Shown here in pieces: positions 6,021 through 38,939 of a stretch of 64,000 bases of DNA. Source of the DNA: a virus. The stretch lies in IMG/VR virus record IMGVR_UViG_3300020220_004906, positions 11,463 through 75,462 of that record. One strand, 5' to 3'. The translations under genes and the position numbers were made by a program. Position 1 is the stretch's first letter. The number at the start of each line of letters is the position of its first letter. Under the pieces are notes generated by a model. That model saw nothing but the letters and a program-made list of their open reading frames with translations. It did no database searches and was not told the origin of the DNA.

Positions 6021-6734
6021 ATGGAATACGGATTTTTTTCTGACAACAAATTGCCAAAATTTAAACCTTATAAAAATTATAGAACAAATTCTTACGGATA
6101 TCGCTGTCCAGAATTTTTAAAGCTTCGTGAAGGTGGAAAAAATGTTGTTGTGTTAGGCTGTTCGCACACATTCGGAGAAGGGCTGGAAGATAATGAGATT
6201 TGGGTAAATGTACTGGCTGAGAATCTAGAAGACAAAAAAAACAATATAAAAAAATTAAGATGGTGGAATCTGGCGAGGCCCGGCGGCAACGCGGATCAGA
6301 TGATAAGAATCTTATATGCAACAGAAAATTTTCTATATCCCAAAATTATAATAGCATGCTGGCCCGCAATCAGTCGTAGAGAACGTCTCGATAGAGAACC
6401 AGAAAACTTAACTAGTGATTCTGAATTTTTAAAAATAGAGACATCAGACACGGATAAGAATAATTTTTTACGTAATGTTTTCTTTTTAGAAAAATTCGCT
6501 CAAAAAAACAATGCTAAAACCTTTCATTGTTTTGCAGACGAATATGTACCTTTGCAGGGAGATCTAAATATTTTAAAAAGCAAAACTATTAGGAACTGTT
6601 GGCCGGAATGGAACCATGATCGTATCATAATCCAAGAACCAAATTTAGCCCGAGATGGGGTGCATTATGGTTTGGAACATCATCAAGTATTTGCTAAATT
6701 ATTCCAAGAAAAGTTCCAAACAAAATTAAAGTAA
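6021..6734 (+). CDS. SGNH/GDSL-like hydrolase or acyltransferase fold protein
   Basis: GCSHTFG, NLARPGG, DGVH (DxxH). Confidence 0.7.
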   Translation: MEYGFFSDNKLPKFKPYKNYRTNSYGYRCPEFLKLREGGKNVVVLGCSHTFGEGLEDNEIWVNVLAENLEDKKNNIKKLRWWNLARPGGNADQMIRILYATENFLYPKIIIACWPAISRRERLDREPENLTSDSEFLKIETSDTDKNNFLRNVFFLEKFAQKNNAKTFHCFADEYVPLQGDLNILKSKTIRNCWPEWNHDRIIIQEPNLARDGVHYGLEHHQVFAKLFQEKFQTKLK

Positions 6735-7739
6735 AGATCTAAACTCAACAAAATCTTCTTTATTTTTAATTTTATCCAATATCGCAAGTAGTTTTTTATT
6801 TTCGTGGTGTGTCTCATCTGCAACAGCGACAGTATCAAAATTTGATAATGTATTCCAATCAGTAATTCTATTAAGAAATATTTTATCAGCATTATATTTT
6901 ACGCCAAGTTCTATGAATGCTTCAATCTCATGATAATTTTTTTGTTGCACGACAAAATGAAAATGTATTTTAAAATCTTTGATTGTTTTTAAAAATTCTA
7001 AGTTTTCTAAGAGTTTTTCCCAAACACCTCCCTGTCGTAATTTTTCATAGGTTTGTTTAGAAGCACCGTCTATACTAATACCAATCTGCGAAAGATTATC
7101 GGTAATATGTTTAAATTTGTGAAAATTCTTTTTAATAAGCAATCCATTAGTTTGTATACTGTATTTCAAATTTTTAAAGTGTTTGGTTTTCAACATGAAA
7201 TATCTATACACAAGACTGGCAAAAGGATCACCGTCGGATCCGATATGTACCTGTATATAGTGTTTCTGATATTTTAAAAAATCTAAAACCTTATCGATTA
7301 ATTTTATTCTTTTATTAAATTCCCCTCCGCTTTTGTAAAAAATTTTTTTTGTTCTACAACTAGGACAACTGAGGTTACAACTATCATCGATGGCTAACCT
7401 AATTTGTTTAATTTGTCTCATAGGTTCAACAAGTTTCCATGGATCAGTGCCTTTGTTATCTAATAGATAAGCACAGTGCCGATTATTACAATATCGATAG
7501 GAATTATCTAATATTGCGTGTTGAAGCGTGTTGGCCATATCTCCGTTTATAATTTCGCCGAGTGTTTTAATTTGCAAATTTCCGGCAGATTGTGGCAACC
7601 AAGACGTGCATTCGCACAGATAGCAAGAACCTTGTTTGTCTATCAACACAGTATCAAACGGTCGAGGACAGCGTTTTTTTATTTTTAAATTTTTATTGAT
7701 ATCTATATTATACCAATCAAATAATCTAGAATTAATCAC
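6726..7739 (-). CDS. Radical SAM protein with N-terminal SPASM/twitch-like domain
   Basis: CNLSCPSC, GDPF, QTNG, ISIDG. Confidence 0.85.
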   Translation of the reverse strand: MINSRLFDWYNIDINKNLKIKKRCPRPFDTVLIDKQGSCYLCECTSWLPQSAGNLQIKTLGEIINGDMANTLQHAILDNSYRYCNNRHCAYLLDNKGTDPWKLVEPMRQIKQIRLAIDDSCNLSCPSCRTKKIFYKSGGEFNKRIKLIDKVLDFLKYQKHYIQVHIGSDGDPFASLVYRYFMLKTKHFKNLKYSIQTNGLLIKKNFHKFKHITDNLSQIGISIDGASKQTYEKLRQGGVWEKLLENLEFLKTIKDFKIHFHFVVQQKNYHEIEAFIELGVKYNADKIFLNRITDWNTLSNFDTVAVADETHHENKKLLAILDKIKNKEDFVEFRSLL

Positions 7740-8833: not shown

Positions 8834-9655
8834 ATGAGACTGGAAACACTACAACCCTATGGTGTAAAAATATACGACTCATCAGCTGATCAAGTATTAC
8901 GAGACACAGATAAGATCATCGACCTCATGATGCAAAACAAAATTTTAATTTTTAAGAACTTTGAGGCCACCCCGGATCAGTTGGTGGCCATAAACAAAAA
9001 ATTTGGCACACCCGTGCGGCACGCCAAGTGGAGGACCAATGCCCTCAAAACACATCCAGAGATATATGTGTTGCACAATGACAAGACCAAAGGACAATTA
9101 AGTCCGGAGATCTGGCACATAGACCAGTCATTCATGCAGTGTCCACCCACATTCAGTTTCTTGTATTCAATCACAGTGGCGCGGGTTGGCGGAACCACGA
9201 TATTCTCAGATCAGTCCGCTGTGTACAGAGATCTCCCCCTCGACATCAAAAAGAAGATCACAGGCAAAGTAGCAGTACACAAACACGCAACTGATTATTT
9301 TTCATCTGCTGTGCCCACGCAAGAAGAGTTGAAAGAAATGCATGCGGACGATTTGGTGTATCATCCCCTGGTTATGCCGCATTGGATATCAGGAGAGAAT
9401 TGTTTATTTTCTGTGTATGGTCACATACGACAGATATTGGGGCTCAGCAAGGAAGAGAGCGATCGCCTGTTAGAGGAGTTACGCAGATATGCCACCAATG
9501 AAAAATATGTGTATGAGCATCACTGGGACAGGAAGGATTTTCTTATCTGGGACAACATCAGCATGCTGCATTCTGCCAAAGGAACAATTGACAGCCTCGA
9601 TGATCAATATTCCAGAGAGATCTGGCGAATGAACAGCCGACACGGCGACGTCTAA
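8834..9655 (+). CDS. TauD/TfdA-family 2OG dioxygenase
   Basis: WHIDQSF, GGTT, HPLV..H, WDNISMLH, terminal R. Confidence 0.9.
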   Translation: MRLETLQPYGVKIYDSSADQVLRDTDKIIDLMMQNKILIFKNFEATPDQLVAINKKFGTPVRHAKWRTNALKTHPEIYVLHNDKTKGQLSPEIWHIDQSFMQCPPTFSFLYSITVARVGGTTIFSDQSAVYRDLPLDIKKKITGKVAVHKHATDYFSSAVPTQEELKEMHADDLVYHPLVMPHWISGENCLFSVYGHIRQILGLSKEESDRLLEELRRYATNEKYVYEHHWDRKDFLIWDNISMLHSAKGTIDSLDDQYSREIWRMNSRHGDV

Positions 9656-9736: not shown

Positions 9737-11428
9737 TCAGCTCTTGGTAAAATTCTCTAGCACGAATGTTTTGGCGTCATAGCATTCTACATAGTCGGAA
9801 TTGTTGGCGTGCCTCACAGTGCCTTGTCCCCAGATCACGTCCTGATCATGCAAGGACACAGCACGCTTGATTGTGACATCGATATATTGTCCGTTACCCA
9901 CACCCAGCGTGACGAACGTGATGTACTGTCCCCGATCTCCACGAAATATCCTACCATTGGCTACCAGTCCTGCGAATTCAACTCGATCCATGTACAATTC
10001 TTTCACGTACAATCCGTCAAGAAATTTCTTGCCTGACCACCAGCCGTATTTCCTATATTGGAACTGCGGAGTGTCCCATCGATCTGAGCAGGAGGGAGTA
10101 ACTACCTCCAGTCCCGCACGCTTGCTTTCTAATTTGTACACCCAGCGACGATAGGAGCCCTGGCAGTGCTTCATGCAGGCCTCCCAGAATTTCTTGTTGT
10201 TGTGTGCCTTTTGATAGGCCAGTGCCCAGATTAGCCTGCCTAAATTCACCGCGTGTGCTCGGCACAGTCCAAAACCCGAAAGGCTCTGCAGCATGGTTAT
10301 TATTTCTGATTTCCTTGGATGGTTGCCCAGTCTCGTGGTGAATTCTAAAATTTTTTCTTCGTTTTTCTTGGCGAAGGCGCGTCTGTACATGTCGGCTTCG
10401 TATTTGTCTATGTCCAGCACTTCTGCTATTCTGTCTATGGCGTCATCTTCATACACTATGGTGTCCTCCATGCGCTCTTGGCTCCAGTCATGGAACATGG
10501 TGGCCTTCTTTCTGCCGGACACGGCCACTGGCCTTATGAGGGCAGTGGCGAACACGCAGTCCTTCCTGCTGGTGGGTTTTATCGCTCTGAAAAGTCTCCT
10601 CATCGCGGGCGACTCCGCCTGGGTGACCCCCAGCACGTCACCTCTGCACAGCAGTTCTGCCGTGGCATCATCGCGCTCGGGATATTCTGTCAGTTTTGTG
10701 TGTGGGTCGATCTCCAGTAATTGGCTCAGCCCTCTGTTGGCCAGTATGTCTACCTTGAGGTGTTCCAGGTCCTCCACTTCGTTCTTGTCCAGCAGTATCT
10801 GATTTTCAGCTGTGAACAGGCTTTTTGGCAAGGCTCTGCCGAACATCAATATTCCGCCGCAGTGTTTGGATATGCATCTCTTCTTCCCCAGCAATTTCTT
10901 CTCTATCCTAGCGGCCTCCCTGATGTCGATGTTGAGAGACTCATATTTGAAATTGCGAGGCAGATTGCCCTTTGCACCCAATCTCTTTGCAGCTTCTCTT
11001 CTCGCACTTTTGTCCCTGTACAGCACATAATTGGATATCCTGGCGGATCTTCCGGGCCAGCGATCGAATATTCTCTGCATGACCTCCTCCTGTTTGTGGT
11101 GTGGGAAGTCTATGTCCACGTCCGGGAGGTCGTCCCTATTGGGATTGAGGAAACGTGCTATGGGTATGTTCCATTCTATGGGATCCACATCAGTGATGCC
11201 CAACAGATAGCACACCAAGGATGATCCCGCGGAGCCCCTGGTCATGTGTGGTATGTCTCTAGTCAGAGACATGATGTCACATATCTGTATGAAGTAATCT
11301 ACGAAGCGTAATTGCAGTATGATCTTGGTTTCCTCGGCCAGACGCTGCGTGTGTTGTTCCGAGTCCGGACACTGCCTGATGAATCTTTCGTACAGCCTGG
11401 TTATGTCGTTTAGTTCCTGATCTTTCAT
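9737..11428 (-). CDS. dnaE: PHP-less DNA polymerase III alpha (DnaE-like, family C)
   Basis: RGSAGSSLVCYLLGITDVDP, PDVDIDF, HCGG, KVDIL, GVTQAES, C-terminal OB-like region. Confidence 0.9.
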   Translation of the reverse strand: MKDQELNDITRLYERFIRQCPDSEQHTQRLAEETKIILQLRFVDYFIQICDIMSLTRDIPHMTRGSAGSSLVCYLLGITDVDPIEWNIPIARFLNPNRDDLPDVDIDFPHHKQEEVMQRIFDRWPGRSARISNYVLYRDKSARREAAKRLGAKGNLPRNFKYESLNIDIREAARIEKKLLGKKRCISKHCGGILMFGRALPKSLFTAENQILLDKNEVEDLEHLKVDILANRGLSQLLEIDPHTKLTEYPERDDATAELLCRGDVLGVTQAESPAMRRLFRAIKPTSRKDCVFATALIRPVAVSGRKKATMFHDWSQERMEDTIVYEDDAIDRIAEVLDIDKYEADMYRRAFAKKNEEKILEFTTRLGNHPRKSEIITMLQSLSGFGLCRAHAVNLGRLIWALAYQKAHNNKKFWEACMKHCQGSYRRWVYKLESKRAGLEVVTPSCSDRWDTPQFQYRKYGWWSGKKFLDGLYVKELYMDRVEFAGLVANGRIFRGDRGQYITFVTLGVGNGQYIDVTIKRAVSLHDQDVIWGQGTVRHANNSDYVECYDAKTFVLENFTKS

Positions 11429-11465
11429 TGCCTTTTTTGCCTATTATTGCCTTGAGCAATATTAG

Positions 11466-12167
11466 TTATCTGGTCAAAGGTTGTGCGGAAATTTTTTGGT
11501 GTTCTCTCAATTTACTTTTAGGTATGTCAACATCTCTGCGATCACAAGCTGCTTTAATAATACAGGTGTCACACAGCGGACTGCGTGATTTACATACCAT
11601 TTTCGCATGAGTGATCAACCACATGTGGGCCCCATATTTGTATGATTGAGGAGTGGTAGCATTCACAGTGATAGATGCTTTGCTTTCATCCAAAGAATCC
11701 ACCCAGCCCAATCTCCACAGCATTCTGAATACATGGGTGTCCACTGCTATGTGTGGCTGTCCCCAAACAAATCGCATCACGATATCTGAGCTCTTGCGCC
11801 CCACGCCGGGCAGTGTCATCAATTCCTCTTGTGTCTGTGGGACCTTGCCATTAAATTTTTCTATCAGCATCTTGCTCGTGGCCAATATGTTTTTTGATTT
11901 TGCGTTGAACAGCCCGGCCGGGCGTATGGCTTCTATAATTTCTTGCTGGGTGAGTTTGAGCATGTCTTCGGGGGTGCTGGCGAGGGAGAACAGTTGCCTG
12001 CAGGCGACCGCCGTCCTAGCGTCCTGTGACTGGGCGCTGAGCATCACACCTATGAGGCTGGTGTATGCCCTGGAATAGATTTTAGCTTTGGGCTTACGAT
12101 TGGAGTGCGTGGGATAGAGCTGACTTAGTTTTTCATAGATATAAGATATGTCGTTACTGTTCTTCAT
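11466..12167 (-). CDS. nth: Endonuclease III (HhH-GPD glycosylase/AP lyase)
   Basis: LSAQ, LPGVGRK, VDTHV, C-x6-C-x2-C-x5-C 4Fe-4S motif. Confidence 0.93.
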   Translation of the reverse strand: MKNSNDISYIYEKLSQLYPTHSNRKPKAKIYSRAYTSLIGVMLSAQSQDARTAVACRQLFSLASTPEDMLKLTQQEIIEAIRPAGLFNAKSKNILATSKMLIEKFNGKVPQTQEELMTLPGVGRKSSDIVMRFVWGQPHIAVDTHVFRMLWRLGWVDSLDESKASITVNATTPQSYKYGAHMWLITHAKMVCKSRSPLCDTCIIKAACDRRDVDIPKSKLREHQKISAQPLTR

Positions 12168-12820
12168 CGGAATGCAGTTCGTTCAGCGATTGTAGGGTCA
12201 TTCTTACCAATAAACTTAAAACCGTCTAGACGATCCAAACAATTTGAACATACGCCACACGGATTCATGCTTGGTTGGTGACATGACCTAGTCAACATTA
12301 TATATTCTTGATATCCTAAATCATAATAGGCCTTGATTGTGTCCTCTTTATGTAGATTTAAAAAAGGAGCAAAAATTTTTTGATTATTTTGTAGATATAA
12401 ATTTAATCCGTTGATCCATTCCTGGGAGGAGCAATATCCATATCTGACAATATTTGCACCAACAAATATTTTATCTAAATTTGGGACACTATTCCAGACC
12501 CGCAGTAAAAATTCTTCTTTGACCCCATTTCGTGTCAATGTTTTATCATTGGTTATATCTATTTCAATTTCTTGATAGTTTGTAAGATTTAATTTTTTTG
12601 TTATTGCATTGACATATCTATGGTATATAGGCACCGGAGAGTTATCTGTTGTTACATTTTTTTGAGAAAATACATACACATTATTTTTACCATATCTTTC
12701 AATGCAAATCAATAATATTAATGAAGATTCTAAACCAGCAGAAAAAGATACTGCTATTTTTTTATAGATATTAGGAAAATATGTGTCTAAATTTAAAGAA
12801 ATATCTTTAGTTGTTTCCAT
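12164..12820 (-). CDS. QueC-like PP-loop ATPase
   Basis: SFSAGLES, APF..K, TRSC..PCGVCSNCLDR. Confidence 0.7.
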   Translation of the reverse strand: METTKDISLNLDTYFPNIYKKIAVSFSAGLESSLILLICIERYGKNNVYVFSQKNVTTDNSPVPIYHRYVNAITKKLNLTNYQEIEIDITNDKTLTRNGVKEEFLLRVWNSVPNLDKIFVGANIVRYGYCSSQEWINGLNLYLQNNQKIFAPFLNLHKEDTIKAYYDLGYQEYIMLTRSCHQPSMNPCGVCSNCLDRLDGFKFIGKNDPTIAERTAFR

Positions 12821-12823
12821 TAA

Positions 12824-14260
12824 TTACTGCTCTTCGTCTGAATGAAGATCATTTAACAATTGTCTCAACTTGCTGCCTTCCACTGTGGCTCTGATTTTAC
12901 CCACTTCATCCCCCTTGGTTGGATCTGGTTCTATCCTCGCATCTGTGGCAGTGCCGTCTGGCGAAATTTTGCTTCTCTGTTTTAGATTGTCATATATGGT
13001 CGATGTTTGTTTTTTAAACTGTTGATACTCTGGATCATCTGCAAGATCTCTTATTCGCAATGTGTCCACATCAAATTCTAGATCCACTTTCTGCCCTACG
13101 CCGCTGCTGCTCCTAGTCTTCATGAACTGCAGCTGATATCTACCACGCTCCTTCATCGCTCGACTAGTGAATATACCAAAAACGTTGTCTGCTGTCTGTA
13201 CCTTGCTCAATCCGCCCGCTATGTGGCTGTGGTCAAATTCAATTTCCTCCACAGATGCCCTATTCAGCTGTGACGCTGTGGCCATCAGCATTTTGGATTC
13301 CACGGCCAAATTCCTTAGCTCCTCTGACACGTACTTGTCTTTGATGAACAGGTCTGCCGGTGATACTCGTTTGCTCTTGGGCATCATGAGATCGAGATAA
13401 TCAATCAATATACAATCTATTTTTCTTTTAGATTTGATCTCTAATTCTTTTATATATGTTTTTATATCTAATACTGTGCTGGCCGATGGCAAATATTTGA
13501 TTTGCAGATTGCCTGATTTCTTAGCGAGCAGTTTGATCTTCATTTCAACGTTTTCGATCTCGGGAAATATTTTCCTTGTGGGTATATTAGTGATCATAGC
13601 ATCCAATCTCATCGCCACCAACATCTCGCTCAATTCAAAAGTGATATAACAACAGTTCAAGCCAGAGCTGGCCCAGTTCACCGCTAGATTTTGTAAGAAC
13701 AAAGATTTACCTGCACCTGATCCGCCTGCAAATATGTTCAGCTCACCGCGATTGAATCCACCAAACAATTTCTTGTCGATGCTGGGCCAACCTGTGCTGA
13801 CCTGTCCATTAGAGTTTTTTAATCGCTCTAATCTACCTCGAGGATCCTCGAAGTAATCCGTACCCATGTCTCTGGTCAATCCAATATTGACCGCTGCCTT
13901 GATCTTGTCTTCCACAGGAGCATAATCACCATGCTCTAACAAATCTGCAGATTCCAGTATGGCACGTGAGAGTGCTTTGTGTCGGGAAAACGTTTCGAAC
14001 TCATCTAATAACCAAGAGAAATGAGATGGGTCTAAATCTTTTGCTGATTTTAATTTGATGTCAAACTTGGCATTCACTTGCTCAACTTCCGGCAATACCT
14101 TATACTGCTCGGCATAGTCTTTGATAAATTTTGCGATGGGTATCAATTTTCTATCAAAATTATTGCTGTCAAAAATATTCTGTGATCTAGCGTATGATTC
14201 CGCATCAGCCAATAACATTTCTAGATATAATTTTTGTACGTCGAAGGTATAGTCAGCCAT
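12824..14260 (-). CDS. Replicative helicase (DnaB/T4 gp41-like)
   Basis: GGSGAGKS, IDYLDLM, ASQLNR, KTR. Confidence 0.93.
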   Translation of the reverse strand: MADYTFDVQKLYLEMLLADAESYARSQNIFDSNNFDRKLIPIAKFIKDYAEQYKVLPEVEQVNAKFDIKLKSAKDLDPSHFSWLLDEFETFSRHKALSRAILESADLLEHGDYAPVEDKIKAAVNIGLTRDMGTDYFEDPRGRLERLKNSNGQVSTGWPSIDKKLFGGFNRGELNIFAGGSGAGKSLFLQNLAVNWASSGLNCCYITFELSEMLVAMRLDAMITNIPTRKIFPEIENVEMKIKLLAKKSGNLQIKYLPSASTVLDIKTYIKELEIKSKRKIDCILIDYLDLMMPKSKRVSPADLFIKDKYVSEELRNLAVESKMLMATASQLNRASVEEIEFDHSHIAGGLSKVQTADNVFGIFTSRAMKERGRYQLQFMKTRSSSGVGQKVDLEFDVDTLRIRDLADDPEYQQFKKQTSTIYDNLKQRSKISPDGTATDARIEPDPTKGDEVGKIRATVEGSKLRQLLNDLHSDEEQ

Positions 14261-14284: not shown

Positions 14285-15472
14285 TTATAACACATTTTCT
14301 ATTTGAAGCCACTCTAAAAATGTTTTTGGAAATATTTTTAAATCGAGGTTCTTACGTCTTTTTGTGAATTCACATAGGAATTCTCTGATGTTCTTCCTTT
14401 CCAACTCGCTGGGCTCTTGTTTTATTGATTTTAATATAGGTTCATAAACACTTTTTGGTAATGTTGATAGATCCTGTGCAATCAAATCCTTGCTCTTTTT
14501 ATCAATGATGTGCGGACTCATCATTCTTGGTTGATAGGAGAACGTCACAATTATTTTATGTGATTTGTATTGGTCGTAAAATTTTTTGAATCCAAACAGG
14601 GTGAGATTGGATAATGTTGAATGAAATTCAAAATTAATCTTTTCTTTTTTAAATATATCAATCTTGTGAGAAAACTCTATCCATTTGACACCGTATCTAT
14701 TAAATTCTAATAGTTGGTCTATGTTTTCAGAACTTATTTTTACAACAAGATTTTTTATTTTTTTTATTTTTCCTATCATGTTCAAAAATCTAGAATTACT
14801 TAGACCTAGACCTGTGTACATTTCTATCTGTGTCATAGCGGGTAGATTTAATTGTTCTAAAGTATCTATGAGAGCATTATCTAACAATGGTTCTCCACCA
14901 GTTATAACTAATTTTTTCAACTTTGCTGCAGATAGTTCTATCTCTTTCAATAAGATTTTGTAGTGCTCTGTATTTTTTAATTTTGATTGACTGATTCTCA
15001 ACATGAACTTGTCTTTGATGTTGCCTTGATATCTATCATCCTGAGAATCCGTTATATCATAATTGCCATTGGTTAGGACGTCTCTCCTCCAGGCATTGCT
15101 GTATTCTTTGCAACAGTATGAACAGGTTAGATTGCAATCCGCTCCTATGGTCAAATCGATTATCTCTGGCCGTGTGACAGCTTCTTGGTGTGTTTTTTCC
15201 ACGCCGCCCTGATACAACCTTGGGCTTTGTGCGCCGTTGTCTTCTGCTTTCCAGCAATTCTGTTCGCAACTGGCATTGCGTTCGTTTCTTAACATTTGCT
15301 CTCGTTCGAATACATTCACTTTGCTGTTAAAAAGATTACCGGGGTTTTCTTTCAGCCAATCGAAATCTATTGAATGCGGAGCTGCCGCATGACAATTATA
15401 TGTTGTTTTAGATCCTAAATCAATTTTTAGGAATTTAAATTTCATTGAACAATAATAGTTTCTACTGTCCAT
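14285..15472 (-). CDS. Radical SAM protein (twitch-domain type)
   Basis: CNLTCSYC, GGEP; similar layout to 1731-3023. Confidence 0.85.
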   Translation of the reverse strand: MDSRNYYCSMKFKFLKIDLGSKTTYNCHAAAPHSIDFDWLKENPGNLFNSKVNVFEREQMLRNERNASCEQNCWKAEDNGAQSPRLYQGGVEKTHQEAVTRPEIIDLTIGADCNLTCSYCCKEYSNAWRRDVLTNGNYDITDSQDDRYQGNIKDKFMLRISQSKLKNTEHYKILLKEIELSAAKLKKLVITGGEPLLDNALIDTLEQLNLPAMTQIEMYTGLGLSNSRFLNMIGKIKKIKNLVVKISSENIDQLLEFNRYGVKWIEFSHKIDIFKKEKINFEFHSTLSNLTLFGFKKFYDQYKSHKIIVTFSYQPRMMSPHIIDKKSKDLIAQDLSTLPKSVYEPILKSIKQEPSELERKNIREFLCEFTKRRKNLDLKIFPKTFLEWLQIENVL

Positions 15473-17949: not shown

Positions 17950-18513
17950 CTATTTATTTTTCCTTATCAAATTCATCTGAACTACAATGGCCTGAGCATA
18001 GGCAACAGCATGAGACTTTTTAAAATAGTAGCTTTCGTCTGAAGGTTTCACCCACACTTCTTTTAATATTTCCGTCCAGTATTTGTGCATGAGATGCCGC
18101 TTGGCAGGTCTGATTATTGCCAACACCGCCGCCAGCTGTTCAATATTTTTTGGTTCCAATTTATATACTATATCGAAATGGCCATTGATATGGAACAATT
18201 GATCCACAATTGTTTTATCTTTTAACATGTCCCAGTCTGGTTCTTCCAGCATCAACTCAACTAATTCCTGTTCTGTTTTCACGCCTTCATAGAGATTAAC
18301 GTTTAGCAGATCTATTTTAAAATAACCACGATCTTCTGCTCTTTTAAAATCAAAACTGCACGAGCCCAACATTGGGTCCACAGGCACTTCATGAAAGTAC
18401 ACGCCTGTCTTGTGTTTTTCTATCTCCTCGTCTTTGATTATGGATGCTGGCACATGTTTAAACAATTTGAGTGCGTGTTCTCTATTGGCAAAATCTATGT
18501 CTACGTCTGGCAT
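17950..18513 (-). CDS. Miniature DnaE-like (Pol III alpha palm/finger) protein
   Basis: MPDVDIDF, HKTGVY, GYFKIDLL, LAIIRP, FKKSHAVAYA in only 187 aa. Confidence 0.85.
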   Translation of the reverse strand: MPDVDIDFANREHALKLFKHVPASIIKDEEIEKHKTGVYFHEVPVDPMLGSCSFDFKRAEDRGYFKIDLLNVNLYEGVKTEQELVELMLEEPDWDMLKDKTIVDQLFHINGHFDIVYKLEPKNIEQLAAVLAIIRPAKRHLMHKYWTEILKEVWVKPSDESYYFKKSHAVAYAQAIVVQMNLIRKNK

Positions 18514-20081: not shown

Positions 20082-20578
20082 ACCGATGCGTATTCTAAAA
20101 ATTCTGATTGTCTGGATATATCCTTAACAAAATAAGCACAGGGTGGATTATCCGCATCTGTTAAAGGAACCGCAAGTATCTGTCCTGATTTGATCTTGGG
20201 GAAATACCATTTAACTTCTTGATAAATGTCCACAATATCAATTTCTGCAAATTCTGGCCTCGATCCAGTAATTGGATTGTATATAAATGCGGAAAATCCT
20301 CGATCATTGAGACTGGTTATCGGTAAGACATGTAATTCTCCCTGTTCTGCGTCTCCTATGATCATCTTCCAATCTAAAGGCATTTGTATTTTATATTTTC
20401 CTACCTGTAACACCGCCGCGGGAGCATTGAATGATTCCAAGAATATCAGAGGTATGAAGAAGTAATCTGGATCAGCAGGATTGGAATTGTCCAGAACCGC
20501 AAATCTCAATTTGTCATCCACATACTCGGGTATCTTTTCTAATACGTATGTTTTATTTTCCAGTGTAAGGATTTTCAT
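20075..20578 (-). CDS. Hypothetical phage protein
   Basis: ORF coupled to UvsW. Confidence 0.7.
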   Translation of the reverse strand: MKILTLENKTYVLEKIPEYVDDKLRFAVLDNSNPADPDYFFIPLIFLESFNAPAAVLQVGKYKIQMPLDWKMIIGDAEQGELHVLPITSLNDRGFSAFIYNPITGSRPEFAEIDIVDIYQEVKWYFPKIKSGQILAVPLTDADNPPCAYFVKDISRQSEFLEYASVW

Positions 20579-22022
20579 AATCTATCTTTTCTATATTATA
20601 CGGGTAATTGGCCTCTTTGTAAAACTTTTTCCTTTGCCCAAGATGTCTTTTTGCAAATTTGCAACTGGAAGTGATATCCCATATGTTCACATGATCCTTA
20701 TCCTCTGCTTTTCTTATACCCCTACCAATGCTTTGTATTACACGCACGAAACTTTTACCAGGCTCTATTAATACCAAATTAAAGATCCTGGGTATGTTTA
20801 TGCCCACGGAGGCCACGCCATAGGTAGCGATAATGACCTTGCGTTGCGAGATTGAGACTTCGTCGTAGTGTTCCTTTCGCTCCATATTCTTTGTGGAACC
20901 AGATATAAACACGCTGTCTGGTATCTTGCTTTCTAACAACTCACCAGCAGATATCCTGTCCACAAGGATCATCGTGTTGCCTGTAGTTGAAATATTTTCT
21001 ATAGTTTTTGCAATCCACGACATCCGAGTTTCATCAGTGGTTAGCCATTTCAATTCTTCTTGATAATTTTTGAATTCTGGATGATCCTGAGTCTGCAACA
21101 CATTGACGTGGCATAGCGCCAGCACGCCTTTGTCTTGTAATTCTTTGGCTGCTATCTTATGGGCTACATCACCTATGCTGCATCTCAATCCATAAAATTC
21201 ATAGTCCGCCTTGGGCACTGTGCCCGTGAGTCCCCAACGTATACCACACTTAGCAAAAGGTCCTGTCAGCATTCTTTTCAACACATCTGCCTTGGCCATG
21301 TGAACTTCGTCCACTATTACGGTGTTGATATTATCTATTGCTTCTAGGAATGCGGTGGTTTCATCATCGCGGCTTTTCTTCTCTAAAACGTTCAGTGATT
21401 GCCAAGTTGCGATCGTATTCTGCCTTCCTAATTCTTTCCTGTCGCCGTAATACACCCCAACATCTAGATTGCACGCTAAAAAATCATCCTCAGTCTGTGT
21501 GACTAGACTTTTGTTGGGAACGATTGTGAGAGTTCTCCCATAGTTCTCAACCAGTTTGCACAGAGCTGCCGTGATGATGGTCTTACCCGCTCCGGTGGCG
21601 ATCTCCTGTATACATTGAGGATTCTTAAGGAACTTGTTTATGGTTTCCACCTGATAGTCCCTCAACACTATTGATTGCCCCGCACAGGGATGATTCTTTG
21701 GCCATTTGATATCGGATAGATAGTTTTGATCTATCAATTTAAATTCAAAGTTGTGTGGGGTTCTTTGATCTTCCAATTCCACATACACACCGGCACCTTC
21801 CAATACTGGCAATATCTCTCCCACCAATGCTAGATAGGTATTGCCGCCCAATCCAAAGAAACTTACCTTGCCATCCCATCTGCCCAGTTTCACTGCAGGT
21901 AGATGTCGAGCATATGGTATCTCAAATTTGAATTTGTTGCTGAGATGCTTTCTATGTTCTAGAGAAAGATTTTCAAATTTGACATTTACCTCGTCTCGAA
22001 TTATCAGTTTGCATGAGCTCAT
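20553..22022 (-). CDS. uvsW: SF2 helicase UvsW
   Basis: LRDYQ, ATGAGKT, DEVH, TGT, QSIGRGIR. Confidence 0.92.
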   Translation of the reverse strand: MSSCKLIIRDEVNVKFENLSLEHRKHLSNKFKFEIPYARHLPAVKLGRWDGKVSFFGLGGNTYLALVGEILPVLEGAGVYVELEDQRTPHNFEFKLIDQNYLSDIKWPKNHPCAGQSIVLRDYQVETINKFLKNPQCIQEIATGAGKTIITAALCKLVENYGRTLTIVPNKSLVTQTEDDFLACNLDVGVYYGDRKELGRQNTIATWQSLNVLEKKSRDDETTAFLEAIDNINTVIVDEVHMAKADVLKRMLTGPFAKCGIRWGLTGTVPKADYEFYGLRCSIGDVAHKIAAKELQDKGVLALCHVNVLQTQDHPEFKNYQEELKWLTTDETRMSWIAKTIENISTTGNTMILVDRISAGELLESKIPDSVFISGSTKNMERKEHYDEVSISQRKVIIATYGVASVGINIPRIFNLVLIEPGKSFVRVIQSIGRGIRKAEDKDHVNIWDITSSCKFAKRHLGQRKKFYKEANYPYNIEKIDYENPYTGK

Positions 22023-37802: not shown

Positions 37803-37859
37803 ATTTTAACACTAATTGGCTCCAGTGTCAATGCTGGAGCCAAAAGGGAAATTAGTGTT
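37803..37859 (-). promoter_or_regulatory. Hairpin after gp32 with an embedded sigma70 promoter for uvsX
   Basis: Stem TTGGCTCCAG/CTGGAGCCAA; TTGACA (37826-37831)-17 nt-TAAAAT (37803-37808). Confidence 0.65.
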
Positions 37860-38829
37860 ATTTGCTTTGTCTTGATCTGATCAGTTTCAAGATATCTTCA
37901 GCTCTCTTGGCGCTGTCAGTGGATGGTTGAGGTGCTGCCGCAACAGGAGCCGCTTTTACCGGTTCCGCTTTGGTTGCCAACACTTCTTCATCGACCGTGG
38001 CTGTTACTGATGCTGATCCGTTTGCAGAACCATTTGCCGTAGCTGATACTCCGGCTGGCCTGAAATACTGACCATATTTTTCCAGATCATATGCCTCGCC
38101 TTCCACAGATCTCTCAAATAATTCTTTGATTATTTTTATCTCCGCATCGGTAGGCTTCTTGGGTCTGAAGTCTGAGAGATTGAACAATCCAAACTTATCA
38201 ATCGCTGCTCGTTCCGCCTCATCCAGGGCTCTTTCTCTTCTGCTCCATTTTGAAGTGGAATAGTCAGCGTATCCGCCTTTGGATGTCTTGGTTATCCTAA
38301 AATCCACACCTCTCACGTAATCAGTTGGCAATTCTTCCATCTCTGGATCTAGCAATGCAGATCTGATTATGTTGAAAATTTGTGGACCAATGATGAATCT
38401 TCTGATAGGATTCTCAGAGGCCTTATCATCGGTTAAGGGATTTTGTAGAACAAAACCTTGGAATATGTAACTTTTCTTTTTCCAATATTTTCTGCCCATG
38501 TCTTCCATTGACTTGTCCTTGAACCAGGGTCGAACTTCCGTAAGGACCGGGCAAGTTTCTCCATACATCTCCATGCATGGTACCTGTACCTGCACTGGTC
38601 TCGAATCCGACTGTCCCTTGATCCCAGCGAAAGGCAATTTGATCATTGCTCTTTCTGTCCAGAAGAAAGTGTTACCGGTATCCTTGTCAGGCAAGAAACG
38701 AACTACTGCTTCTTGATTTTCCTGTATGTTCCAGTGTGGGTAGATGGCGTTGTCGCCGCCGGTTGATGAAGTGGAGCGATTCACTTCTTGAGATTTTAAC
38801 CTCGCTCTTATTTCAGCTAGTGTAGCCAT
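37858..38829 (-). CDS. ssDNA-binding protein gp32-like
   Basis: VRFLPD, CPV, DFRITK, ADYSTSKW. Confidence 0.88.
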   Translation of the reverse strand: MATLAEIRARLKSQEVNRSTSSTGGDNAIYPHWNIQENQEAVVRFLPDKDTGNTFFWTERAMIKLPFAGIKGQSDSRPVQVQVPCMEMYGETCPVLTEVRPWFKDKSMEDMGRKYWKKKSYIFQGFVLQNPLTDDKASENPIRRFIIGPQIFNIIRSALLDPEMEELPTDYVRGVDFRITKTSKGGYADYSTSKWSRRERALDEAERAAIDKFGLFNLSDFRPKKPTDAEIKIIKELFERSVEGEAYDLEKYGQYFRPAGVSATANGSANGSASVTATVDEEVLATKAEPVKAAPVAAAPQPSTDSAKRAEDILKLIRSRQSK

Positions 38830-38939
38830 AATGTAAGCCTCCTTGTGTGCCTATGTTTGTTTTGTTTGCCTAAATGTACATTAGACATAAAGAATAATAT
38901 ACACAGTTATTTATCTGTTGTCTATGGTGAAATTTGGTA

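Follow-up and report, generated by a model that had tools for sequence, protein, structure and literature searches.

The locus considered here raises the question of what a short family C DNA polymerase does in a giant phage, and whether the DNA glycosylase gene lying next to it is a clue to that role. The window, i.e. the whole stretch of DNA analysed, comprises 64 kb out of a 75,462-bp viral contig (IMG/VR record IMGVR_UViG_3300020220_004906; CheckV completeness 14%). It harbours an open reading frame (ORF) of 563 amino acids (aa) for a stand-alone family C polymerase at 9737-11428(-), here termed dnaE563, and directly upstream, across a 37-nt spacer, nth (11466-12167(-), 233 aa), which encodes an endonuclease III-type glycosylase/AP lyase. 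A reading made from the letters alone, referred to below as the sequence-only reading, had placed both ORFs at these positions and interpreted them as a mobile, GC-rich base-excision and gap-filling module. The analysis described below leads us to favour, with slightly better than even confidence, a different reading, in which dnaE563 is a stand-alone polymerase of a viral clade devoid of the PHP domain, would serve as a third polymerase beside a family B polymerase (PolB) and a split minimal Pol III (mini-Pol III) and would carry out late, proofreading-free fill-in synthesis, with nth as dispensable cargo.

The nature of the polymerase itself is indicated by its domains and predicted structure. 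Pfam recognizes only PF07733 (residues 14-230, E 1e-41) and PF17657 (residues 243-366, E 6e-15) in the 563-aa protein, with no PHP, HHH_6 or OB family among the matches. The palm and thumb (residues 14-230; 10739-11389(-)), delimited by Pfam and alignment, contain an RGS motif (64-66), the catalytic residues D103 and D105 within PDVDIDF (encoded from nt 11122 downward) and K225/D227 within a KVD motif. The fingers (residues 243-450; 10079-10702(-)), identified by PF17657 and matched to E. coli Pol III alpha up to its residue 819, carry R299-P300 and H392, in line with the RP and K/R-x-H motifs expected of family C fingers, and a C-terminal OB fold (residues 479-556; 9761-9994(-)) was assigned from structural alignments to SSB/PriB and alpha OB folds. 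In the AlphaFold (AF2) model (pLDDT 88.7, pTM 0.87), residues 2-450 superpose on residues 284-819 of E. coli Pol III alpha, with Z scores of 26-35 to solved alpha subunits, whilst residues 479-556 match SSB/PriB-type OB folds with Z ~8 (VIA-align); full-length structural alignments to the Taq and M. tuberculosis alpha subunits likewise extend into their OB folds. The fingers are joined directly to the OB fold by a linker of ~28 residues, the (HhH)2 region that follows residue ~819 of alpha being skipped in the structural alignment, and the chain terminates 7 residues past the OB fold, leaving no room for a C-terminal tau-binding domain. As the match to alpha sets in at residue 284 and passes over everything between ~819 and the OB fold, dnaE563 is short of the PHP domain (alpha 1-283) and the beta-binding/(HhH)2 region (~820-990), in addition to the tau-binding tail. 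Pfam and the superpositions therefore bear out the earlier description of a DnaE with palm, fingers and an OB-like end but neither a PHP domain nor an HhH region.

In its palm, thumb, fingers and C-terminal OB fold, dnaE563 resembles the DnaE-type bacterial Pol III alpha subunits (E. coli, T. aquaticus and M. tuberculosis DnaE1; PDB 2hnh, 3e0d, 5lew and 7pu7), with which it also shares a pol-beta-like nucleotidyltransferase palm bearing three aspartates. A family profile is much closer to DnaE-type chains (E 4e-63) than to PolC-type chains (E 2e-14). Unlike these subunits, dnaE563 has no N-terminal PHP domain, no (HhH)2/beta-clamp-binding domain and no tau-binding tail, and its segment from palm through fingers is ~90 residues shorter. 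The RGS motif, D103, D105, K225, D227, R299-P300 and H392 are invariant in a 32-sequence alignment (A1) that reaches down to 29% identity, and the ratio of nonsynonymous to synonymous substitution (dN/dS) is ~0.04, a value that, for dnaE563 as for the other genes discussed here, comes from only 9-15 computable pairs per gene, dS between the window and most relatives being saturated. On this sequence and model evidence, dnaE563 is inferred to be a catalytically competent family C polymerase made up of palm, thumb, fingers and OB fold. Structural biologists and enzymologists would thus have in it a minimal C-family polymerase made of a single piece.

Being half the usual length, dnaE563 could alternatively be a truncated, decaying remnant of a full-length phage DnaE without function. 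This explanation is already contradicted by the conservation data: the length is steady at 540-600 aa across >100 clusters, the catalytic residues are invariant, dN/dS is as low as stated above and the AlphaFold model is both confident and compact. We regard its probability as negligible.

The homologues of dnaE563 form a family in their own right. A search for homologues of near-identical length returned >1600, of which the 120 listed measure 494-579 aa, mostly ~560 aa, and several derive from Tara Oceans data; homologues at 71% identity also occur on contigs of 272-286 kb. An exhaustive search of cluster representatives gave 15,082 matches, and the best 150 of these fall into three classes: ~60 stand-alone clusters of PHP-less proteins (540-700 aa), ~20 proteins of 900-1180 aa with an N-terminal ResIII/Helicase_C helicase of superfamily 2 (SF2), and PHP-bearing proteins of ~1000 aa. 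In a tree of 121 cores, the PHP-less stand-alone proteins and all of the helicase-fused forms make up one clade of 79, a figure that leaves out four short stand-alone rows placed among the PHP-type sequences. The branch parting this clade from PHP-type DnaE has a length of 0.59 and an SH-aLRT support of 100; a C-family phylogeny, which the sequence-only reading had proposed as a check, hence sets the PHP-less forms apart. The clade has either shed its PHP and (HhH)2/clamp-binding domains together with the tau-binding tail or lacked all three from the start.

The helicase fusions are nested as a sub-clade within the PHP-less clade (SH-aLRT 98). They are metagenomic proteins with the same palm-fingers-OB core as dnaE563, to which ~400 N-terminal residues of SF2 helicase (ResIII/Helicase_C) are added that dnaE563 does not have. 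The fusions are P0156, P0157, P0161-P0164, P0166, P0174, P0186, P0188, P0190, P0191, P0194, P0197, P0198, P0203, P0206 and P0209; P0174 has a Hint/homing-endonuclease insert inside its helicase part, and the only IMG/VR relative found of these proteins lies on a 6-kb contig (L194) in the bin of a giant-virus metagenome-assembled genome (MAG). The SF2 helicase encoded in the window (20553-22022) was considered as kin of the fusion helicase and rejected, since the two share only generic motif similarity.

Members of the PHP-less clade are almost absent from cellular genomes. A scan of 185,579 bacterial and archaeal species, with one genome per species, found three members at >=40% identity, one of which is the same phage replication module in a "Legionellales" MAG; the remaining matches are ordinary DnaE proteins at <=32% identity. 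Among 50,697 GenBank phage records, a full-length member occurs only in LR756508.1, an uncultured 484-kb phage whose DnaE is 38% identical to that of the window. From these sequence surveys, the clade is apparently confined to viruses. The cellular hit, a 42-kb contig (L114; PBLX01000009.1, 'MAG: Legionellales bacterium SP228'), carries dnaE563, dnaB, the primase gene and orf16491 together; in all likelihood this is phage DNA that was assigned to a bacterial bin, and possibly a hint to the host. Bacillus phage Blastoid was considered as a cultured example of a PHP-less enzyme and discarded, as its polymerase gene encodes 1029 aa, i.e. a full-length protein.

A structural role of the PHP domain has been used to explain why this domain is never lost. 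Every bacterial Pol III alpha surveyed by Timinskas et al. (2014) carries it, and our literature searches found no described PHP-less DnaE. A large PHP-less clade under strong purifying selection would consequently provide a direct test of the need for the PHP, clamp-binding and tau-binding modules.

The stretch recurs nearly verbatim in 20 lake or freshwater metagenome DNA runs, and its gene content is of the T4-like giant phage type, including a gp32-like protein that binds single-stranded DNA (SSB), a UvsX-like recombinase, a DnaB/gp41-like helicase, a Toprim primase and an SF2 helicase, in addition to a T4-type terminase, a tail sheath and a gp15-like protein. The motif PDVDIDF occurs exactly twice in the six frames of the window, at residue 101 of dnaE563 and at the start of a 187-aa ORF at 17950-18513(-). 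This second ORF, termed mini-DnaE, corresponds to the part of the minimal Pol III alpha that binds metal and template; in group 2.2 jumbo phages this enzyme is split, and mini-DnaE is its C-terminal half (phrog_11778, E 4e-65). It is 53% identical to gp074 of phage Atu_ph07, with identical gene order. By this likeness and the shared order, the window phage belongs to the jumbo phages that Iyer et al. (2021, PMC7824862) describe as group 2.2. The earlier proposal of two separate C-family cores in one phage is accordingly upheld, the two being distinct enzymes.

Related genomes supply the context that the contig, as a fragment, cannot. The close relatives are 80 IMG/VR loci with DnaE proteins 81-95% identical to that of the window, and the more distant ones 18 loci at 59-73%, giving 98 related loci altogether; one of these, G005, with a DnaE at 59% identity to the window's, is an IMG/VR genome of 337,119 bp that has terminal repeats and a completeness rating of 100%. 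G005 contains a family B polymerase in an 889-aa frame, the C-half of mini-Pol III, a separate N-half in a 197-aa frame at 117.4 kb, and a homologue of dnaE563. The family B polymerase for which the sequence-only reading had suggested looking is thus present in this complete relative, and also in LR756508.1; in the 75-kb contig neither PolB nor a mini-Pol III N-half was found, in keeping with its status as a fragment. The PolB genes of these two relatives speak against dnaE563 being the only polymerase, an alternative that the sequence-only reading had named as refuting it. No PHP domain occurs anywhere in the contig or in the complete G005.

As G005 holds PolB, both halves of mini-Pol III and a dnaE563 homologue, dnaE563 is a third polymerase. 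The split enzyme is likewise phage-specific and PHP-less, occurs in the same phage group and shares PDVDIDF, but its core nucleotidyltransferase and template-binding subdomains are encoded by two genes, whereas dnaE563 is one chain with thumb, full fingers and OB fold; the coexistence of a dnaE563 homologue with both halves in G005 further separates the two. According to Iyer et al. (2021, PMC7824862), phages with a split minimal Pol III carry no other Pol III domains, and a division of labour between the split enzyme and PolB was proposed. Atu_ph07, which has the split halves and lacks dnaE563, agrees with that account, its N-half lying ~180 kb from its C-half. The combination of dnaE563 with the split enzyme is not described by Iyer et al. 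(2021, PMC7824862), nor was the three-polymerase combination found in the searchable text of Timinskas et al. (2014) or Kazlauskas et al. (2016). Abundant aquatic giant phages would therefore combine three polymerase systems, whose division of labour between replication, recombination-dependent synthesis and repair is a testable question.

The N-halves, which bind NTP, lie at 240841-241083 of NC_042013.1 in Atu_ph07 (L196) and at 117395-117595 in G005 (L200), and the frame around the Atu_ph07 match holds one TAA. Three candidates for the missing N-half of the window were rejected: orf18730 encodes a zinc-finger protein without an RGS motif, the reading frame that continues upstream of mini-DnaE is interrupted by many stop codons, and a supply of the N-half by dnaE563 itself is disfavoured because a separate gene for the N-half is present in the complete G005.

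DnaE2 of bacteria is likewise a C-family enzyme without proofreading that exists beside the main replicase, and dnaE563 might by analogy be an error-prone translesion or mutagenic polymerase of the DnaE2/ImuC kind. It has neither proofreading nor a PHP domain, and among NCBIfam models it scores highest with that of DnaE2, PRK05672, at 174.8 bits, the runner-up among the DnaE models reaching 167.6. This score nevertheless lies far under the 939-bit cut-off and barely over the DnaE1 models, and the dnaE563 clade stands apart from all PHP-type sequences on the tree. DnaE2 proteins retain a (degenerate) PHP domain and full length (Timinskas et al. 2014), and work with ImuA/ImuB, features that dnaE563 does not share. 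No Y-family gene of the ImuB type (PF00817) was detected in the contig, two related fragments or the complete G005, which fits the earlier remark that the window contains no ImuA/ImuB, although imuA was not searched for. A translesion role is therefore judged very improbable.

The second part of the question concerns nth. Its product matches Pfam HhH-GPD and HHH and, over the full model length, TIGR01083, where its 175.9 bits fall under the 211.7-bit equivalog cut-off. With E. coli Nth it shares the HhH-GPD fold, the catalytic lysine in GVGRK, the aspartate in VDTH and the Cx6Cx2Cx5C 4Fe-4S loop (CKSRSPLCDTCIIKAAC), differing from it in being phage-encoded and in the score below the cut-off. 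Amongst relatives, the catalytic motifs are present in 59/59 nth genes and the four cysteines in 58/59, with a dN/dS of ~0.04. To judge from its sequence, nth encodes an intact endonuclease III homologue, predicted to act as a glycosylase/AP lyase.

The linkage of nth to dnaE563 is looser than its position in the window suggests. The gene order orf18730-miniDnaE-orf16491-primase-dnaB-[nth]-dnaE is common to the 80 close loci, and 75 of them contain both dnaB and dnaE. In 52 of these the order dnaB-nth-dnaE is tight and in six nth is followed by an extra insert, so that nth lies between dnaB and dnaE in 58/75 (77%); dnaB is directly followed by dnaE in seven, and ten have other inserts and no nth. 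Gain and loss of nth were scored on a tree built from 95 DnaE sequences, those of 94 related loci and of the window. Nine changes were counted: nth was acquired once, at the base of the 81-95% clade, and well-supported branches force seven or more losses, with nth absent in 14/14 scored outgroup loci. The gene is missing from all 18 more distant loci, LR756508.1 has no HhH-GPD gene, and G005 has one weak HhH-GPD match, ~79 kb from its dnaE. The co-occurrence that the sequence-only reading expected of a functional nth-dnaE cassette is thus limited to part of the close relatives, which for the most part amounts to the lack of conserved linkage that this reading had itself named as its refutation.

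Where nth is absent, the dnaB/dnaE junction holds genes for a methyltransferase, a sulfotransferase, a porin-like protein, a sugar isomerase/nucleotidyltransferase fusion or a TonB-dependent receptor (Plug plus beta-barrel); examples of such cargo are found at L009:2517-4406(+), L030:8976-9920(+), L030:7702-8810(+) and L025:3584-4744(+). Outer-membrane proteins encoded by phages are unusual. Given one gain, at least seven losses and unrelated cargo at the same site, nth is best described as a working accessory gene in a cargo hot spot and not as a fixed partner; from these comparisons of sequence, it appears functional yet dispensable, one of many genes landing in the dnaB|dnaE junction. For annotation, the lesson is that nth beside dnaE563 represents hot-spot cargo and is not evidence of a repair operon.

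These observations bear directly on the model put forward at the outset, in which nth and dnaE563 constitute a two-gene base-excision and gap-filling module, Nth removing oxidised pyrimidines and nicking the strand and the polymerase standing in for Pol I or Pol X to fill the resulting gap. The adjacency in 58/75 close loci, the purifying selection on both genes, the retained catalytic Lys/Asp and Fe-S motifs of Nth and the lack of processivity and proofreading modules in dnaE563, as expected of a gap filler, are all in accordance with it. Yet nth has been lost at least seven times and is absent from the 14 scored outgroup loci, no nth lies near dnaE in LR756508.1 or G005, other genes are inserted between nth and dnaE in six loci, and unrelated cargo occupies the same site in other relatives. 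Furthermore, Nth leaves a blocked 3' end that requires an AP endonuclease or a 3' phosphodiesterase, and the module contains no gene for either. Expression signals also separate the two genes. In relatives, the start of nth overlaps the stop of dnaB by 11 nt, and in the window its ATG overlaps the stop of a QueC-like gene (ATGA); nth thus appears translationally coupled to its upstream gene and not to dnaE. Beyond the stop codon of nth, a separate promoter-like motif and leader serve dnaE. A co-folding prediction for DnaE563 and Nth scored 0.00 and speaks neither for nor against binding. Overall, the base-excision module is considered a rather remote prospect, if less so than a translesion role; the polymerase by itself may nevertheless act in gap filling or damage tolerance.

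The base composition of the locus had been taken as a sign of mobility, and the underlying observation holds: the GC content of dnaE (0.502) and nth (0.470) exceeds that of the adjacent QueC-like gene (0.304), a PP-loop gene with partial QueC matches in Pfam and NCBIfam that lies between dnaB and nth (12164-12820(-)). At third codon positions (GC3), dnaE reaches 0.613, which is 2.4 standard deviations over the window mean of 0.413 and, tied with orf57221, the highest in the window; orf43414 (0.581), TerL (0.558), nth (0.534) and the TauD gene (0.526) follow, and the QueC-like gene is the lowest (0.224). The third-position make-up of dnaE, low in T and high in C and G, matches that of TerL, orf43414 and orf57221, and across relatives dnaE has a GC3 of 0.459 against 0.38-0.40 for its neighbours, with nth (0.405) not richer. 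Counterparts of the window's QueC-like, TauD and hydrolase genes are lacking from all 98 related loci. Since the high GC of dnaE is shared with native late genes and the AT-rich genes are missing in relatives, the contrast reflects AT-rich recent inserts and not an imported GC-rich cassette. It is the QueC-like gene that is the compositional outlier; it has the appearance of a gene that entered the dnaB-nth interval recently and has been retained in the 20 lake-water runs, and the notion of a mobile GC-rich cassette does not survive this comparison.

The steadiest neighbour of dnaE563 is instead dnaB, the gp41-like replicative helicase gene (12824-14260(-); Pfam DnaB_C). All 75 close loci that extend as far as dnaB have it upstream of dnaE, and in most of the 65-73% relatives the two genes are in tandem or convergent; over the whole range of 59-73% loci, dnaE is found in tandem with dnaB, convergent with it or elsewhere. 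On the sequence data, dnaE563 appears to be stably inherited among the giant aquatic phages of this T4-like (group 2.2) lineage, usually beside the replicative helicase gene. This raises the possibility that it belongs to the replisome together with DnaB and the primase, either extending RNA primers or making one strand before handing over to PolB, much as the DnaE of B. subtilis extends primers and then hands over to PolC. The proximity to dnaB and the primase gene across most of the family (65-95% identity), the fusion of sister forms to an SF2 helicase and a conservation on par with that of DnaB all accord with such a role, and a similar split of labour was proposed for mini-Pol III and PolB (Iyer et al. 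2021, PMC7824862). However, in the 59% relatives, including the complete G005, the dnaE563 homologue is located among auxiliary genes, far from the replication module; the gene is preceded by a late-type promoter motif instead of being placed purely in an early replication operon, and the protein has no clamp-binding domain. In addition, T4-type PolB extends primers unaided. A replisome role is consequently thought unlikely, although it deserves more weight than either the base-excision or the translesion proposal.

The signals upstream of dnaE563 provide the remaining evidence. Its leader (11429-11465(-)) comprises three AGGCA units (11429-11452) ending at the ATG, preceded by GATAACTAATATT, which is a diverged copy of the late-type motif GATAAATA of the relatives and within which the nth stop codon lies. 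Amongst 71 unique leaders of relatives, taken as the 80 nt upstream of the dnaE start, 52 contain TAAATA, mostly 39-50 nt before the ATG, compared with 3% of random 80-mers from the same loci; at least two AGGCA units within the last 45 nt are found in 69/71 (random 80-mers 0.9%) and at least three in 52/71. The conserved leaders consist of two to four AGGCA units that run up to the ATG, and one of them is seen at ~9960-10000 of L008. The TAAATA motif, with GATAACTAATATT as its window copy, is a candidate for the TATAAATA-like -10 element of a T4-type late promoter. Several structural genes of the window also have TAAATA 10-13 nt ahead of their start codons, which fits the core of a T4-like late promoter. 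Both the motif and the AGGCA leader accompany dnaE into three different genomic contexts, which, at the level of sequence, points to an autonomous expression unit.

The AGGCA leader is not exclusive to dnaE563. Its pattern has 7 matches in the window against 1.8 expected, 2 of them at the dnaE leader, and the leader (38830-38880(-)) of the gp32-like SSB gene (37858-38829(-); Pfam gp32) carries TAGGCAAAC...ACATAGGCA, units that are the same as those in the dnaE leaders of relatives. It may represent a shared translational operator or an unusual ribosome-binding region, and dnaE563 is possibly co-regulated with gp32. In three related records, the triple AGGCA pattern was found in the dnaE leaders and in one other place, in G006, where it lies inside the 3' end of one ORF, 68 nt before a phrog_10922 ORF, and is uninformative.

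Taken together with its domain content, these features suggest how a third, stand-alone polymerase might be used. Having no proofreading and no contacts to the bacterial clamp or tau, but an OB fold for the template, dnaE563 is inferred to perform short, non-proofread synthesis. It would act as a distributive polymerase, its OB fold holding the single-stranded template, and would fill in short stretches or extend 3' ends on gp32-coated single-stranded DNA. Its likely substrates would be gaps and recombination intermediates late in infection, e.g. in recombination-dependent replication and repair, and its synthesis may be tuned jointly with that of gp32. Nth may create some of these substrates, as an optional supplier and not an obligate partner.

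Several observations weigh against this account. PolB and the mini-Pol III N-half are known from a relative whose DnaE is 59% identical and not from the 75-kb contig, and the adjacency to dnaB and the primase gene suits a replisome role equally well as repair. The late timing is deduced from a motif alone, and the window and its closest relatives read GATAA(C/T)TAATATT, with no TAAATA; the similarity between the dnaE and gp32 leaders consists of short shared units. Moreover, 77% of the close relatives retain nth beside dnaE under strong purifying selection, and a functional link is possible in that sub-lineage.

A wider proposal, to which we attach somewhat less than even confidence, is that family C has a major branch that has gone unrecognised, consisting of the PHP-less enzymes with palm, thumb, fingers and OB fold, confined to large viruses and working without PHP, clamp or tau contacts. 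One sub-branch would be a helicase-polymerase, the giant phages would run three polymerases, and dnaE563 would perhaps be co-regulated with gp32 via an mRNA leader of AGGCA repeats.

The replication genes of the window are flanked by a TauD-family dioxygenase gene (8834-9655(+)) and two radical SAM genes (6726-7739(-) and 14285-15472(-)). Relatives have nothing closely similar to any of the three at the corresponding position; homologues of the radical SAM gene at 6726-7739(-), 42-75% identical, do occur downstream of dnaE in relatives, at a variable distance.

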